A stretch of 8,248 bases of DNA, taken from a virus (taxonomy: Duplodnaviria > Heunggongvirae > Uroviricota > Caudoviricetes). The DNA lies in the IMG/VR virus record IMGVR_UViG_2671180849_000023; one strand, written 5' to 3'. A program made the translations under genes and the position numbers. Within the stretch, counting starts at the first letter, position 1; every line of letters starts with the position of its first letter. Positions 2,200 to 8,248 of the stretch are shown here, in pieces. The notes under the pieces are model-generated. The model did no database searches, had not been told where the DNA came from, and saw only the letters and a program-made list of their open reading frames with translations.

Positions 2200-2943
2200 A
2201 TGCATCGTATAGACACGAAAACCGCGCAGAAGGATAAGTTCGGCGCGGGTAAGAACGGTTTTACCCGTGGTAACCCCCAGACCGGCACACCTGCCACCGA
2301 TCTGGATGATGACTACTTTGACATGTTGCAGGAAGAACTCTGCAGCGTGGTGGAGGCATCCGGTGCCAGCCTGGAGAAGGGGCGGCATGACCAGCTGCTT
2401 ACCGCGCTTCGTGCGCTGCTGTTAAGCCGCAAGAATCCGTTTGGCGATATCAAATCTGATGGCACGGTGAAAACGGCTCTCGAAAACCTTGGTTTGGGAG
2501 AAGCGGCAAAACGAAATGTGGGCAACGGGGAAAACCAAATCCCTGATATGTCTTTCTGGACGGTTACTGGTGGCAATGGAAATTTTGTGATTCGTCAACC
2601 TGACGGGCTAATCATTCAGATGGTTACTGTAAGTATAAGCGGTCCAGTGGCGATGAATGGAATGACTGATAATGCTTATGCCATTACAGGTTCTAATAAG
2701 TCTTATATTGCCACAGCCACATTGCCCTTTGTATTTCCTAATAAGGTGCTGGGCGTTATCCCTCTGGTATCAACAACAGCTTATGGTGGTGTATCCAGTA
2801 ATATTACAGGTTCATACGCGACGGCGGTTTGTTCTTTTGCCGCTGTCAGGGGGAATAATACGATTGTGTTCAAAGTCGACAAACCACTGAATGCAGCCTT
2901 TCCTTCAGATACCAGCGTCTCAGCGTTAATCATTGGACGGTAA
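2200..2943 (+). CDS. Phage tail fibre protein in the currently expressed orientation (constant N-terminal domain to about 2502, then a variable C-terminal domain inside the invertible segment)
   Basis: ATG 2200 with GGAG Shine-Dalgarno 8 nt upstream. N-terminus [47 protein letters not shown] is the conserved N-terminal motif of Mu/P1/P2/e14-type tail fibres. The crossover site 2468..2503 lies in-frame, encoding …[11 protein letters not shown]…. Confidence 0.8.
2468..2503. repeat. Left inversion crossover site (pix/gix/hix-like), 36-bp perfect inverted repeat with 26-bp core at 2477..2502
   Basis: tgaaaacggctctcgaaaaccttggtttgggagaag is the exact reverse complement of 4421..4456. The 26-bp core ctctcgaaaaccttggtttgggagaa is an imperfect palindrome with central TT, resembling Hin/Gin/Pin recombination sites as I recall them. 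Confidence 0.8.
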
Positions 2944-2945
2944 GA

Positions 2946-3389
2946 ATGAACTCAGTATTCTTTTCACCCGCAAGTAAAAGTTTTTATCTGCAAGAATTGT
3001 TTCCAGAATATGAGGATGCGGGAACGCTTCCTGATGATGTTATTGAAATTACCAGAGAAACATATGAGCAATTTCTTGGGCTGCATCCAGAAGGGAAAGA
3101 AATTGGCGCTGACAGTTCAGGACGGCCAATATGGATTAATTCCCCGCCGCCTTCAAAAGAGGATGAGATGCTGGCGGCTGAAATGAAAAAGATATCTTTG
3201 GTTTCAGAAGTCAATACCTACATCAATACCCATCAGTGGCCTGGCAAAGCTGCTATTGGTCGTCTGAAAGGTTACGAGCTGGAACAATATAATTTATGGC
3301 TGGATTATCTGGACGCACTGGAACTGGTTGATACCTCCAGTGCTCCAGATATTGAATGGCCTACGCCTCCGGTAGTTCAGGCCAGATGA
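2946..3389 (+). CDS. Tail fibre assembly chaperone (Tfa) paired with the expressed fibre variant
   Basis: ATG 2946 lies 2 nt after the fibre stop, consistent with translational coupling. 147 aa, with the C-terminal motif …LDYLDALELVDTSSAPDIEWPTPP typical of Tfa proteins. Confidence 0.7.
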   Translation: MNSVFFSPASKSFYLQELFPEYEDAGTLPDDVIEITRETYEQFLGLHPEGKEIGADSSGRPIWINSPPPSKEDEMLAAEMKKISLVSEVNTYINTHQWPGKAAIGRLKGYELEQYNLWLDYLDALELVDTSSAPDIEWPTPPVVQAR

Positions 3390-3966
3390 CATCCGGCGCG
3401 GTGCTGGTATCTGTTGCAGTCACCGCGTCAATGTAATCCAGCACAGCGTTAAGCCGGGTTGTTTCTGCCTGCGTCAGCTTCCGCCCGGCCTGCAATTTCA
3501 GCTGAATCAGACTAATGGAAGCCATAGCAGCATCAATCAGTGACTGGCGCCGTACTTCTGCCGCGTCTACTGCGGCGTTATGCTGTGCCTCAGTATCGGT
3601 CACCCATTTCTCACCATCCCATTTATCGTATGACGTTAACGGGGCGATAGTGGTTGTATTTTCAGGGTAATCACCCGGAAGTGTGATTTCTTTTGATTCT
3701 CCTGTTTCGGTGCTATAGACGATTTCACCGCGATGGTCTGGCACATATTCCCATGAGTTAAAATCTGCAGAACGGCAAATTGCATAACCAGCTTTATATG
3801 AGCCAGGAGCATCTAAACAGGAACATGCCGGGATACCAACACCCACAGCAAGATATTCAGTTGATGTGGAAATATATTCCCGTGTTTCACCATCATAATT
3901 ATAAACGGTAATGTCTCCGGCCTTTGTGGCGATGAGTTCATTATTTAATACAGCTTTACTTATCAT
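3361..3966 (-). CDS. Alternative tail fibre assembly chaperone (Tfa') for the silent fibre variant
   Basis: 201 aa on the minus strand, with C-terminal …LDYIDAVTATDTSTAPDVIWPELPEA paralleling the plus-strand Tfa. Its ATG overlaps the upstream cassette stop in an ATGA arrangement. It lies inside the invertible segment. Confidence 0.75.
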   Translation of the reverse strand: MISKAVLNNELIATKAGDITVYNYDGETREYISTSTEYLAVGVGIPACSCLDAPGSYKAGYAICRSADFNSWEYVPDHRGEIVYSTETGESKEITLPGDYPENTTTIAPLTSYDKWDGEKWVTDTEAQHNAAVDAAEVRRQSLIDAAMASISLIQLKLQAGRKLTQAETTRLNAVLDYIDAVTATDTSTAPDVIWPELPEA

Positions 3967-4475
3967 GCAGCCCTCACAATATAATTAAAGGCGATGTTAC
4001 GGGAGCGGGTTTCAGATGCTGTGCGAACTGAGCGAGATGCGTCGAATGTCCAGTTATAAGCGCCATAACCCTCAATAATTGCGGCTTCCTTTAGACCTGT
4101 AGATAATACTTGCCCATGTTGACTAAATGGCCCTGAACTAAGTACGTCTCTAAAAAGCTGGGTACGCCCAAAAGAACCAACAATATTCTGAATTGCATCA
4201 TTCTGTGCAGATAATAAGTTACGACCAGAGTCAATCCCGCGCCCATCATCCCAGCCACGAATAAATTCACCGCGTAAATCTGGTAATTTTAATGTTGGGT
4301 AAGCCTTTGCCAGATTTGGGTACTTTTCAGAAGAAAATACTGCTCCGTTACATTTTAGCCACCCCGTTGGCGGAGTGGCGGAAGGCCACGGAACAGGCAC
4401 ACCAACGGGTAATGCCGAACCTTCTCCCAAACCAAGGTTTTCGAGAGCCGTTTTCAAACGAGCAAATGGCATCAT
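3963..4475 (-). CDS. Alternative tail-fibre C-terminal variable (receptor-binding) cassette, silent orientation; becomes fused to the constant N-terminus at 2200 after inversion
   Basis: The minus-strand ORF begins [18 protein letters not shown]…, so the crossover-site-encoded [11 protein letters not shown] lies at its N-terminus. The rest (153 aa) differs from the plus-strand variable domain. The ATG at 4475 lies outside the right crossover site and may be fortuitous. Confidence 0.65.
   Translation of the reverse strand: MMPFARLKTALENLGLGEGSALPVGVPVPWPSATPPTGWLKCNGAVFSSEKYPNLAKAYPTLKLPDLRGEFIRGWDDGRGIDSGRNLLSAQNDAIQNIVGSFGRTQLFRDVLSSGPFSQHGQVLSTGLKEAAIIEGYGAYNWTFDASRSVRTASETRSRNIAFNYIVRAA
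4421..4456. repeat. Right inversion crossover site, 36-bp perfect inverted repeat with 26-bp core at 4422..4447
   Basis: cttctcccaaaccaaggttttcgagagccgttttca; exact reverse complement of 2468..2503. Lies 46 bp upstream of the invertase start. Confidence 0.8.
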
Positions 4476-4501
4476 TCCTGCTTTTGTCAGGGAGATCTAC
4501 C

Positions 4502-5056
4502 ATGCTTATTGGCTATGTACGTGTGTCAACAAATGACCAGAACACAGATCTACAACGTAATGCGCTGAACTGTGCAGGATGCGAGCTGATTTTTGAAGAC
4601 AAGATAAGCGGTACAAAGTCCGAAAGGCCGGGACTGAAAAAACTGCTCAGGACATTATCGGCAGGTGACACGCTGGTGGTCTGGAAACTGGACCGGCTGG
4701 GGCGCAGTATGCGGCATCTTGTCGTGCTGGTGGAGGAGTTGCGCGAACGAGGCATCAACTTTCGTAGTCTGACGGATTCAATTGATACCAGTACCCCAAT
4801 GGGGCGCTTTTTCTTTCATGTGATGGGGGCCCTGGCTGAAATGGAACGAGAACTGATTGTTGAACGAACAAAAGCTGGACTGGAAGCTGCTCGCGCACAG
4901 GGACGAATTGGTGGACGTCGTCCCAAACTTACACCAGAACAATGGGCACAAGCCGGACGATTAATTGCATCAGGAGTTCCGCGCCAGAAAGTTGCGATTA
5001 TCTATGATGTTGGCGTATCGACTTTGTATCAGAGGTTTCCGGCAGGAGATAAATAA
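4502..5056 (+). CDS. pin: Serine DNA invertase of the Hin/Gin/Pin/Cin family
   Basis: 185 aa from ATG 4502, with GGGAG Shine-Dalgarno 7 nt upstream. MLIGYVRVSTNDQNTDLQRNAL… carries the catalytic serine motif VRVSTNDQ, and …DTLVVWKLDRLGRSMRHL…SLTDSIDTSTPMGRFFFHVMGALAEMERELIVERT…GRIGGRRPKL…VSTLYQRFP follows Hin/Pin closely. The track ORF extends upstream to 4292, but the conserved N-terminus sets the start at 4502. Confidence 0.85.
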   Translation: MLIGYVRVSTNDQNTDLQRNALNCAGCELIFEDKISGTKSERPGLKKLLRTLSAGDTLVVWKLDRLGRSMRHLVVLVEELRERGINFRSLTDSIDTSTPMGRFFFHVMGALAEMERELIVERTKAGLEAARAQGRIGGRRPKLTPEQWAQAGRLIASGVPRQKVAIIYDVGVSTLYQRFPAGDK

Positions 5057-5254
5057 AGACACAGCTCGTCGAATTCAAGAACGTGTGAGCCAATCTCATG
5101 ATGATTCATTATTTTCACATAGAGTCAATGACAAAAAACGGCTGCAAGGTAAACCACAACGATGGCTTTGTTAATTGATAGCGGTTTTGGTACTAAATGA
5201 TACAAATTAAAATGAATATCCTAGTGAATTACAACAATTTCAGGAGGAAATAGT

Positions 5255-5467
5255 ATGCCAAGAAAAACGCTAGAAAATTTGGTAAATGTTGCACGTCAGA
5301 CTCAGGAAATAGCGGATAAGAGAAGCCGTTTTTTCGGGTATCTTGAACAGCATGGCTTGAAGAGGAATGAGGATAGTGCTCACCTTTTTGCTATGCATTT
5401 ACGGTTGCAACACAATGAAAGAGATAATCTTGTCCATGAACTGATGTCCGGATTACATCATAAATAG
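5255..5467 (+). CDS. Hypothetical small protein (70 aa), no recognisable family
   Basis: ATG 5255 preceded by a strong Shine-Dalgarno AGGAGG (5242..5247, 7-nt spacing). AT-rich, convergent with the 114-aa/343-aa operon. Function unknown. Confidence 0.5.
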   Translation: MPRKTLENLVNVARQTQEIADKRSRFFGYLEQHGLKRNEDSAHLFAMHLRLQHNERDNLVHELMSGLHHK

Positions 5468-5501
5468 TGCATCATTCGAGCAAGAATATTATAAGACAAT
5501 A

Positions 5502-5524
5502 AACCAGCCAAAAACTGGCTGGTT
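5502..5524. terminator. Possible bidirectional hairpin terminator between convergent genes
   Basis: Stem CCAGCC (5504..5509), loop aaaaact, stem GGCTGG (5517..5522). On the minus strand it is followed by a T-rich run (TTTATTGTCTTAT); the plus-strand U-tract is weak. Confidence 0.35.
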
Positions 5525-5551
5525 GAACGTTAACTTTTTGAATTTAATCAA

Positions 5552-5896
5552 TTAACTTTGGTGTATGTCTTGGTAAGTCTCATCCGTCAGAGCCAATTTC
5601 ATGCAAATATCATCGTTAAGACTGACAATATCTTCGATCAGTTTATTGATCTCGAAATCGTTAAGTTTTGATACTGTTGCTTGAACTCGCCCCTCATCGC
5701 CAGTGGCATCAAACTTAGTCAGTTCCTTACATAATTCATCGAACCTGCTTTGTAAGGCATTTGGAATATCATCGGCTGTTTTAAGATGCCCAAGGCTAAA
5801 AACATACGAATTAATCAAGCGTTCTTGAATACTTCCATGGCCCGCAAGAGTAAGTACTGCAGTATGAAATTTTTCATGTGCATACTTTAAGGACAT
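5552..5896 (-). CDS. Hypothetical protein (114 aa), second gene of the cargo operon, no recognisable family
   Basis: ATG 5896 with GGAG Shine-Dalgarno at 5904..5907 (7-nt spacing), 51 nt downstream of the 343-aa gene on the same strand. AT-rich. No motif I can assign. Confidence 0.6.
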   Translation of the reverse strand: MSLKYAHEKFHTAVLTLAGHGSIQERLINSYVFSLGHLKTADDIPNALQSRFDELCKELTKFDATGDEGRVQATVSKLNDFEINKLIEDIVSLNDDICMKLALTDETYQDIHQS

Positions 5897-5947
5897 ATCT
5901 GGTCTCCGTGACTTATAACCTCAACCGACATAAATGGGGTTAAGTGA

Positions 5948-6979
5948 TTATTCTGAAACAATAGTGTTGAACTGACCTATAGAAACAGCACCCTTTTCAA
6001 TTACCTCTAAGTAACTGATTTTAATATGAGAGTTGTTTGACAAAGCGTCAACAATAGCTGTCAACTCATCTTGGGTGATAACATCAGCTGAAGCTTTGAT
6101 TGTGAAGCATTCGTCATTAGAGACCCTAACAACGTTAATATTAATATCCTGATTTGTTGGCCCTGTTCTGGTTACACCTTTGATGGAAAATATATCAGTT
6201 CGTTCTTTACGTTCTCTATCTACAGATTGTCGGCTGTTGTAGGTATTTAGGTCTTGTCGTGTTAGTTTCTCATTTCCTAAAGTCACGGTTTCGACAGTAG
6301 GATCAGCAGCTAATTGCTTCACTAAAGCACTTTTACCTGCTTGTCCGTGACTAGTAACTTTATCGCTAATCGCTGATTTCCCATAGATTTTATAATCTAA
6401 TGTTGCTTCTATGGCTTTGTTTATGCCATCGGATGTGGTTTTTGCAATTTCAACCTGCCGATCAGTTGCATGTCTTTCTGTTACGGCATTTTCTGAAATG
6501 TAGTGATAACCACATGTGCTGGCCGCGCCAACCATTGTGATTATAACAAGCATTTTCTGCCAGCCGTTCAGTCCAGACATAGTATCTCGCAAAAAATCAG
6601 TTACTGCGTTGATGATCTTGTCAGTGGTGCCTTCCGCATCACTAGAACCTTCGCTAATTTTAAAATTTATATCAAGTCGTTGCTTGTCTTCATTAGTCAA
6701 GCGTTGAAGATTCTGCGATCCGTATCGTATGGTTGCAAACGCCCGCTGTATCTCCTCGTTGAGCATTGACATACCAAACAACATTGCTGATGTAATTGAT
6801 GAATGATACCGCTCTCCTTTTACATTTATGTCTAAGGATGGCCAGCCTGCAAACTTTACGTTAGGGAAAATAAACTCTTTAGAATCAAGCCCCTCTCGGG
6901 CTTTCATTTCTTCCAGAAAGTTTAGAAAATCATCTTCACTACGGATCAGAAAATCAATCGAATCCACAGTAGCTTCCAT
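5948..6979 (-). CDS. Hypothetical protein (343 aa), first gene of the cargo operon, with one hydrophobic segment (aa 143..161); no recognisable family
   Basis: ATG 6979 with AAGGA Shine-Dalgarno 7 nt upstream; a long uninterrupted ORF. GC counted at 20/60 in each of 5941..6000 and 6001..6060, against 38/60 in smpB (7981..8040). Confidence 0.7.
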   Translation of the reverse strand: MEATVDSIDFLIRSEDDFLNFLEEMKAREGLDSKEFIFPNVKFAGWPSLDINVKGERYHSSITSAMLFGMSMLNEEIQRAFATIRYGSQNLQRLTNEDKQRLDINFKISEGSSDAEGTTDKIINAVTDFLRDTMSGLNGWQKMLVIITMVGAASTCGYHYISENAVTERHATDRQVEIAKTTSDGINKAIEATLDYKIYGKSAISDKVTSHGQAGKSALVKQLAADPTVETVTLGNEKLTRQDLNTYNSRQSVDRERKERTDIFSIKGVTRTGPTNQDININVVRVSNDECFTIKASADVITQDELTAIVDALSNNSHIKISYLEVIEKGAVSIGQFNTIVSE

Positions 6980-7034
6980 ATGAATATCCTTATTAAATTC
7001 TCATTCGGTTACTGTTTATTGTTGACTGATCAAT

Positions 7035-7063
7035 AAAAAAGCCCGCAATTTGCGGGCTTCTTT
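7035..7063 (-). terminator. Rho-independent terminator downstream of ssrA (minus-strand orientation)
   Basis: Stem GCCCGCA (7041..7047), loop att, stem TGCGGGC (7051..7057). On the minus strand the hairpin is followed by TTTTTTATTG; on the plus strand by the weaker TTCTTTC. Confidence 0.55.
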
Positions 7064-7188
7064 CACACTTGAGAGCCGCGGCTCCTTTGCGTATCCTTTT
7101 TTGTCTCCTCACCGTCTGGTCGGTGTCCTGCTGAGACTGCTAACTTCCTGTTTTTGTTGGTGTTGTCCTTACACCGTCCAATCATGAT

Positions 7189-7551
7189 TGGTGGAGCTGG
7201 CGGGAGTTGAACCCGCGTCCGAAATTCCTACATCCTCGGTACTACATGCTTAGTCAGTCTTTACATTCGCTTGCCAGCTGCGGACGGACACGCCACTAAC
7301 AAACTAGCCTGATTAAGTTTTAACGCTTCAACCCCAGGCAGGGCTTCCACGCGATCTCTTTTGGGTTTGACCTCTCTTGATCCCCGTCCTAAGAGCGGAG
7401 GCTAGGGAGAGAGGGCTCTAAGCAGGTTATTAAGCTGCTAAAGCGTAGTTTTCGTCGTTTGCGACTATTTTTTGCGGCTTTTTACGAGGCCAACCGCCCC
7501 TCGGCATGCACCTTGGGTTTCGCAAATCCCGTCGAATCCAGAATCAGCCCC
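7189..7551 (-). ncRNA. ssrA: tmRNA (transfer-messenger RNA, 10Sa RNA), 363 nt
   Basis: Reverse complement begins GGGGCTGATTCTGGATTCGACGGG and ends …GGGTTCAACTCCCGCCAGCTCCACCA (tRNA-like acceptor/T-arm with encoded CCA). The internal tag reading frame is at 7430..7462. Confidence 0.95.
7430..7462 (-). other. tmRNA tag-peptide reading frame (resume codon GCA through stop): ANDENYALAA*
   Basis: Minus-strand codons GCA AAC GAC GAA AAC TAC GCT TTA GCA GCT TAA, read directly from the sequence. This is the proteolysis tag of E. coli and close relatives. Confidence 0.9.
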
Positions 7552-7765: not shown

Positions 7766-8248
7766 TTAACGGTGGGCGTTTTTCATGATACGTGCTTTAT
7801 CCACCTGCCATTCGCGTTCTTTGATATCTGAACGTTTATCGTGCTGTTTTTTACCTTTGGCGACGCCGATTTTCACTTTGCACCAGGCATTTTTCCAGTA
7901 CAGGGAGAGCGCCACTACGGTATAGCCTTCTCGATTGACGCGACCGTACAATGAGTCCAGTTCGCGCTGGTTGAGAAGTAACTTGCGGGTACGGGTAGGA
8001 TCGCACACCACATGCGTGGAGGCCACGGCCATTGGCGTGATGTTAGCGCCAAACAGAAATGCCTCTCCGTCACGCAGAAGGACGTAGCTGTCGCTGATAT
8101 TGGCTTTTCCTGCGCGCAGGGATTTAACCTCCCAGCCTTGCAGGGCAAGTCCCGCTTCGAACTCTTCTTCGATAAAGTATTCGTGACGGGCGCGCTTGTT
8201 AAGCGCGATGGTCGCTGAACCAGGTTTATGTGCTTTTTTCTTCGTCAT
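7766..8248 (-). CDS. smpB: SsrA-binding protein SmpB (160 aa, complete)
   Basis: ATG at the window edge (8248..8246), stop at 7766. [56 protein letters not shown]… is the canonical SmpB sequence, upstream of and co-oriented with ssrA as in E. coli. Confidence 0.95.

Follow-up and report, generated by a model that had tools for sequence, protein, structure and literature searches.

A small conserved gene at the attachment-proximal end of a decayed Escherichia coli prophage, probably an autonomous moron of temperate phages

The window analysed here, the whole 8,248-nt stretch of DNA, is part of the Escherichia coli chromosome. Within it, a decayed prophage at ssrA is represented by its tail-fibre/Pin-invertase end. 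The smpB gene (7766-8248) and ssrA, which encodes tmRNA (7189-7551), are both annotated on the minus strand, and leftward of them lies the prophage end with its Mu/e14-type tail genes. The tail region contains a Gp48/YmfQ-like baseplate gene (1585-2196), with the Hfq-binding small RNA isrC upstream of it on the minus strand (1446-1568; Rfam RF01387, 150 bits), and an invertible tail-fibre segment that holds a convergent pair of tail-fibre-assembly genes. The region 2200-4475, which comprises the tail-fibre C-terminus and the assembly genes and lies upstream of pin, is present in both orientations in otherwise identical loci and also carries different fibre tips (L002 and L010 against L004, L007 and L009; L numbers denote the compared loci). 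The two orientations are consistent with active or past Pin-mediated inversion. The Pin invertase gene pinE ends at 5056 on the plus strand and is annotated in RefSeq with 184 aa; the mechanical ORF (4292-5056, plus strand, 254 aa) over-extends it, the resolvase domain starting at ORF residue 73.

An AT-rich block follows pin, with a GC content of 0.36-0.39 across 4951-6300 as against 0.49-0.54 in the pin gene. Within it lie the 70-aa ORF (5255-5467, plus strand), the 114-aa ORF convergent on it (5552-5896, minus strand) and the 343-aa ORF (5948-6979, minus strand), which abuts ssrA. The 70-aa ORF thereby occupies a prophage accessory position, between pinE and ssrA, in DNA of a composition unlike that of pin (0.36-0.39 against about 0.5). 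Likeness of the window to other E. coli pin loci ends at about 5058-5085. The left boundary of the module (5035-5144) is a stretch of ~110 nt that shares about 80% identity with the 3′ end of K-12 yedL and its downstream flank. In K-12, yedL (GNAT) neighbours the SRAP gene yedK; in the window the yedL-like stretch directly follows pin and is, to judge from its sequence, a recombination scar just past that gene. An Rfam search of positions 5000-5650 gave no match.

The 70-aa gene comprises 70 codons, from the ATG at 5255 to the TAG stop at 5465-5467. It already carries a RefSeq annotation as hypothetical protein WP_001137529.1, an accession for which a literature search found no papers. A Shine-Dalgarno sequence, AGGAGG (5242-5247, plus strand), precedes the ATG with a 7-nt spacer, AAATAGT. 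AGGAGG occurs once in the window, where 2.7 copies are expected, while AGGAGG-N4-9-ATG is expected 0.24 times and arises at least once in 42 of 200 shuffles; by itself, the combination of this motif with the ATG is not beyond chance. What sets the ORF apart from chance is its same-length homologues, each with a Shine-Dalgarno sequence of its own, and their coding substitution pattern.

A candidate -10 region on the plus strand (5208-5222) contains TAAAAT (5208-5213) and TATCCT (5217-5222), with no good -35 element. All ten family loci have a -10 hexamer (TATAAT, TATACT, TAAAAT or TACAAT) ending 25-42 nt before the ATG, and the -35 elements are poor in all ten. The TATCCT of the window is as far from the ATG as TATACT is in L041, with TAAAAT 9 nt upstream of TATCCT, and the upstream regions of the two loci (about 5187-5222 in the window) are 78% identical over 36 nt. 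Compared with its relatives the TATCCT hexamer is degraded, and a generic promoter scan of the window reported no site upstream of the ORF. A promoter for the 70-aa gene is therefore plausible but probably weak, as the first-pass annotation had described it.

A G+C-rich hairpin (5502-5524; no strand assigned), with a stem of 9-10 bp and a loop of 3-5 nt, lies within the 84-nt gap that separates the stops of the convergent 70-aa and 114-aa genes. Folding of 5460-5560 gives -19.6 kcal/mol (z = -2.6). The terminator scan reports the hairpin on the minus strand only, with the tail TATTGTCTTA; on the plus strand, a T-run (TTTTT) begins 10 nt past the stem. The hairpin probably serves as a terminator whose form suits the minus-strand transcript of the 114-aa gene better, and the 70-aa transcript would also end there, at what is a poor plus-strand terminator. 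The window stem (AACCAGCC/GGCTGGTT) is identical to the stems of hairpins located beside tRNA relics in L020 and L037; the placement relative to the gene differs, and the identity may be a coincidence. The layout drawn from the letters alone in the first pass, namely the ORF with AGGAGG 7 nt before its ATG, TAAAAT at 5208-5213, the hairpin, the convergence with the 114-aa gene and the AT-rich setting, was recovered throughout.

An exhaustive HMMER scan of 1.84 billion representatives returned five relatives, all full-length and 67-76 aa long, with identities of 40-58% and E values of 2e-12 to 7e-5, and homologues are found in Escherichia, Citrobacter, Scandinavium and Pantoea. A word-indexed search with the same protein found near-identical copies only. 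A profile search led to 17 clusters, of which those named by source come from Escherichia, Salmonella, Citrobacter, Scandinavium and Pantoea. The family is small, unnamed, 67-76 aa in length and confined to Enterobacterales. Its members align from a common start (M-P/R-R/K-K-T) to a common end and share the motifs ARQT, NExSAHxFA and RxNLVxxLMS, without any conserved stretch of 7-10 residues. A 1959-aa match of the exhaustive search, P0063, is a eukaryotic BRCA2-repeat protein that the family profile does not support, and was set aside as spurious.

Scans of Pfam, PHROGs, NCBIfam and PADLOC with the ORF and all 16 family members gave no usable match, in agreement with the first impression that the ORF has no recognisable family, and a PDB sequence-profile search with the 70-aa protein returned nothing. 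When three family members were compared by tblastn with INPHARED (50,697 phage genomes), two had no match at all. The third weakly matched (E 5e-3) the N-terminal helix of a hypothetical Phapecoctavirus protein of 152 aa, a product of Escherichia phage phiWec179 (L052 2977-3435). This helix weakly resembles helix 1 of the family and its LERNE motif (hhalign probability 70% over 51 columns), a likeness that may reflect a shared helical module or chance. Because the family has no INPHARED match apart from this weak partial one, its phage origin rests on prophage context. A search of a plasmid collection gave one match, a 2.6-kb E. coli record with the same block.

Comparison of the DNA of ten homologous loci revealed a Shine-Dalgarno-like purine run at the same distance from the start in all ten. 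In nearly all pairs, position 3 of the codon varies more than positions 1 and 2. The Nei-Gojobori dN/dS is below 1 in every pair tested and amounts to 0.07-0.50 in the eight with an estimable dS. Frame +1 is the only frame free of stops across all ten homologues. The two closest pairs, with dN/dS of about 0.5, indicate only moderate constraint, and the two differences seen among E. coli variants of the protein (R23K and Y29D) are both non-synonymous. DNA homology among the family loci is limited to the ORF, with about 35 nt of promoter in addition in one pair (the window and L041). These patterns of substitution mark the 70-aa ORF as a genuine, conserved gene that is under purifying selection. 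The first-pass annotation had allowed for an ORF lacking conservation in related loci or coding constraint; what was found instead is homologues at 40-58% identity with the same start and length, constrained codons and closed alternative frames. Its view that the ORF is probably translated agrees with this constraint and with the matching position of the Shine-Dalgarno sequence in 10/10 loci.

An AlphaFold2 model built from a 16-sequence alignment consists of three helices (residues 4-33, 39-48 and 53-65; pLDDT 78). Inspection of the sequence found no signal peptide, hydrophobic span or conserved Cys/His cluster, and nearly every invariant residue is a core hydrophobic (A13, L30, A42, A46, L59, V60 and L63). 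The product is thus predicted to be soluble and roughly neutral, a three-helix protein in which nothing looks catalytic or membrane-associated. Fold and sequence comparisons yielded no PDB or BFVD match and no significant fold match. Two specific identities were considered and rejected. A type II antitoxin would be expected to have a co-directional partner, which is lacking in all ten lineages, and the three-helix model has no significant antitoxin match, meeting PezA only at a Foldseek E of 7.3. An excisionase or recombination directionality factor does not agree with the all-helical model or with the location of the gene on the prophage arm opposite int; the excisionase family phrog_8896 was matched by only one of the 16 members, at E 0.15.

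At the prophage tip, the phage genes typically end with the homologue or just after it. The homologue lies past the tail-fibre or tail-spike genes and further cargo and reads outward to the phage/chromosome junction. In L020 (Pantoea), tail spike, UmuDC, Abi, SRAP and DinI genes lead to the family gene and then livF. In the Citrobacter loci L029-33, the gene stands between tail fibre/Tfa or DinI-UmuD-SRAP genes and an MFS/kdgR locus. It follows a tail spike in L028 and a tail spike, an O-acetylase and SRAP in L041, where a convergent 114-aa ORF examined as a counterpart of the 114-aa gene of the window proved to encode an unrelated secreted protein. In L037-40, the order is tail spike, UmuDC, SRAP, DinI, family gene and a displaced icd 3′ fragment, and the family gene lies on the prophage arm opposite int (L037-L040). 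A ‘50-aa ORF’ past the family gene of L037 (6637-6789) encodes the C-terminus of isocitrate dehydrogenase. The icd fragment reads as an icdC-like attR, left by e14-type integration. In L039, int and xis of a second prophage follow the icd fragment (6912-8271), an arrangement that would represent tandem lysogeny at icd. Finally, the gene is still intact in some prophage remnants that are otherwise heavily decayed, namely in the window and next to the chromosomal gene frmR in L023 and L042; in L023, the gene stands between a terminase remnant and frmR.

Relics of attachment sites accompany many of these loci. On the strand opposite to the family gene and about 75-90 nt upstream of it is a 3′ fragment of tRNA-Pro(GGG), 47-55 nt long and on the minus strand in L020 (5871-5925), L028 (2849-2895), L029-L032 (5876-5925), L034 (5879-5926) and L037-L040 (5958-6012). 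L021 (263-294) and L022 (248-279) carry a fragment of the ssrA 3′ end instead, likewise on the minus strand. The tRNA-Pro fragments are 89-100% identical to the E. coli proL sequence and are far better conserved than the adjacent family gene. Most of these loci also have a hairpin before the fragment, with stems such as AACCAGCC/GGCTGGTT, and a search near the fragments found no intact tRNA. A tRNA 3′ end combined with a replacement terminator looks like an attP-type structure, and such a relic lies about 75-90 nt from the family gene in at least six diverged lineages. In L034, tRNA-Pro fragments occur at 4209-4239, 5879-5926 and 7122-7141 on the minus strand and at 5637-5651 on the plus strand. 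The three serial fragments bound small cassettes, a 142-aa ORF and then the 70-aa gene with an SRAP gene, a layout suggesting that cargo was added or exchanged in succession at relic att sites.

The two minus-strand genes of the block have histories of their own. The 343-aa protein matches phrog_6191 (E 7e-38) and is not included in PADLOC. Its homologues, at 29-83% identity (among them L057 3680-4696, L058 2891-3907 and L059 1547-2563), are spread across Enterobacterales and reach Pseudoalteromonas and Pseudomonas. The gene stands between cI and N, the rexAB position, in three lambdoid contigs. The Photorhabdus copy comes after a cI-like repressor gene, and in Cronobacter-type loci the gene stands at the end of a CbtA/CbeA island; elsewhere it lies directly beside tRNA-Pro (L014) or ssrA. 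In L004, the 343-aa gene is split into ORFs of 124 and 165 aa. The 343-aa gene is a candidate for a stand-alone, lysogen-expressed exclusion or defence gene, and its occurrence at the cI-N (rex) position recommends it over the three-gene block as a defence candidate. For the 114-aa protein, all copies found in E. coli and IMG/VR are identical. Distant relatives (33-40% identity) occur on plasmids of Deinococcus and Methylobacterium near ParA, XRE and recombinase genes (L050 4001-4324; L051 4001-4315), where they stand alone, with no 343-aa partner and no 70-aa relative beside them.

Whether the 70-aa gene acts by itself or with these neighbours can be judged from where the homologues of each occur. 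The first-pass annotation had left the ORF as either independent cargo or a third component of the 343/114-aa operon (a regulator, antitoxin or anti-defence factor), and had suggested checking whether its homologues are always found with the pair. Adjacency in a common AT-rich block, the hairpin common to the ORF and the 114-aa gene, and co-occurrence speak for the latter: searches with the ORF and with the 114+343 segment both give 46 of 5426 complete E. coli genomes, and all 10 contexts of the identical 70-aa protein contain the three genes side by side. However, these copies are always at least 99% identical, and the linkage thus represents one young block that carries no functional information. 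In the diverged loci compared outside this block, homologues of the 343-aa and 70-aa proteins never occur together. By tblastn, none of 14 loci with 343-aa homologues (29-83% identity; about ten lineages; L012-L019 and L054-L059) has a 70-aa or 114-aa relative, and none of ten lineages of 70-aa homologues has a 343-aa or 114-aa homologue nearby. Neither partner accompanies the lambdoid cI-N copies or the 82%-identical gene of Mangrovibacter, which sits between ssrA and pin. There, the place of the E. coli 114-aa and 70-aa genes is taken by a tRNA-Pro-like relic and a hairpin; in L012, this degenerate fragment and hairpin lie at about 7025-7070, past the 343-aa homologue, and are followed by the convergent pin. 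Moreover, the ORF (plus strand) and the 114/343 genes (minus strand) converge with a hairpin between them and do not form one operon, an arrangement atypical for antitoxins and operon regulators. By comparative genomics, then, the 70-aa gene has no evolutionary linkage to the 343-aa and 114-aa genes, themselves separate morons. The third-component reading is largely refuted by this phylogenetic unlinking and must be considered very unlikely, while the cross-genus separation lends support to independent cargo. A fortuitous or decaying ORF without function would suit the statistically ordinary Shine-Dalgarno and ATG motif, the weak promoter and the absence of a known family, yet it is hardly credible beside homologues of the same length and start at 40-58% identity, dN/dS values below 1 and alternative frames that are closed.

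Other proposals tie the gene to its surroundings at prophage ends. An accessory role in a prophage SOS/lesion-tolerance cassette, for example as a modulator of RecA, SRAP or translesion synthesis, is suggested by an SRAP (YedK-like) gene within about 0.2-0.8 kb in five of ten lineages (L020, L030-33, L034, L037 and L041), by DinI and/or UmuDC in L020, L030-33 and L037, and, in the window, by the yedL relic that immediately precedes the 70-aa ORF, yedL being next to yedK in K-12. SRAP genes are described as clustering with SOS mutagenesis genes and occurring in prophages (PMC3765255); that article contains no occurrence of ‘small protein’, and the passages of it examined do not mention the 70-aa family. 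Against such a role, a terminator hairpin and a tRNA relic between the gene and the cassette form a module boundary, and the cassette is absent from L023, L028, L029 and L042. The only LexA boxes found upstream of family genes are the dinI operators, about 290 nt away and beyond the terminator, which leaves SOS control of the 70-aa gene unsupported. The association may only mirror a common location at prophage ends, and the role is doubtful. It is unlikely that the protein is a DNA-binding or recombination accessory of the att site, with an architectural or directionality function, as the geometry of the att relics and weak core-binding-domain-like fold matches of the model might be taken to indicate. 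A combined formulation, in which the family is an att-linked phage factor at relic att sites (in secondary integration or cargo exchange) or a modulator of SRAP, DinI or UmuDC, has a similarly slim chance of being correct.

On balance, the 70-aa ORF is probably a bona fide, autonomously expressed moron of temperate phages that encodes a small binding or modulator protein. Under the moron model, a weak sigma-70 promoter would transcribe the gene in the lysogen. Since the invariant residues are core hydrophobics and no catalytic-looking features are present, the product would not be an enzyme but would bind a host or phage macromolecule and act stoichiometrically. The retention of intact copies in decayed prophages (the window, L023 and L042) points to a benefit for the lysogen, which could be a function in lysogenic conversion or in phage-host conflict. 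The family evidently belongs to no named family and would be a new small family of an ordinary kind of element. What had been a ‘hypothetical protein’ becomes a defined small-protein family of 17 clusters, found in Enterobacterales only and absent from Pfam, PHROGs and NCBIfam, with a reproducible genomic address at the att-proximal tip of temperate phages. The description of the locus as a cargo operon plus a third gene is corrected to a mosaic of three independent morons. Specialists would expect unannotated small morons at prophage ends, and there is no sign of an unusual mechanism here; the family nevertheless offers a clean test case for surveys of small proteins and prophage cargo.

Several known systems resemble the 70-aa gene or its product in part. 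Hha/YmoA, T4 AsiA (phrog_1166) and YmgB/AriR are also about 70 aa long, all-helical and horizontally acquired, and, as expected of the 70-aa product, protein binders. The likeness is one of size and type: none of the 16 family members matches Pfam HHA, a single member matches the AsiA anti-sigma factor family phrog_1166 (E 0.11), and YmgB is reached by Foldseek at E 8.8. The fold matches of the 70-aa model are weakly core-binding-domain-like, recalling the N-terminal domain of tyrosine recombinases (Cre, XerC/D and IntI4). The closest parallel in position is the mcrA slot of e14, where the order is pinE, mcrA and icdC/attR and mcrA is the last cargo gene before the att duplicate. Like mcrA, the 70-aa ORF of the window is an independent cargo gene past Pin and the invertible tail-fibre segment, and the family gene of L037 directly precedes the displaced icd 3′ fragment, as mcrA does in e14. 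McrA is a nuclease of ~277 aa and has no relation in sequence or size to the 70-aa protein, and the window, unlike e14, has the 114-aa and 343-aa cargo genes between the ORF and the att site (ssrA). A further parallel is provided by the lambdoid morons, such as bor and lom of phage lambda, which are units of promoter, gene and terminator set between conserved phage genes. Bor and Lom carry signal sequences and belong to the envelope, whereas the 70-aa product is predicted to be a soluble three-helix protein. The genetic unit nonetheless resembles them in being an AT-rich insert with its own candidate -10 and Shine-Dalgarno sequence and a downstream hairpin, with homology limited to the unit itself and a place in the accessory arm of the prophage.
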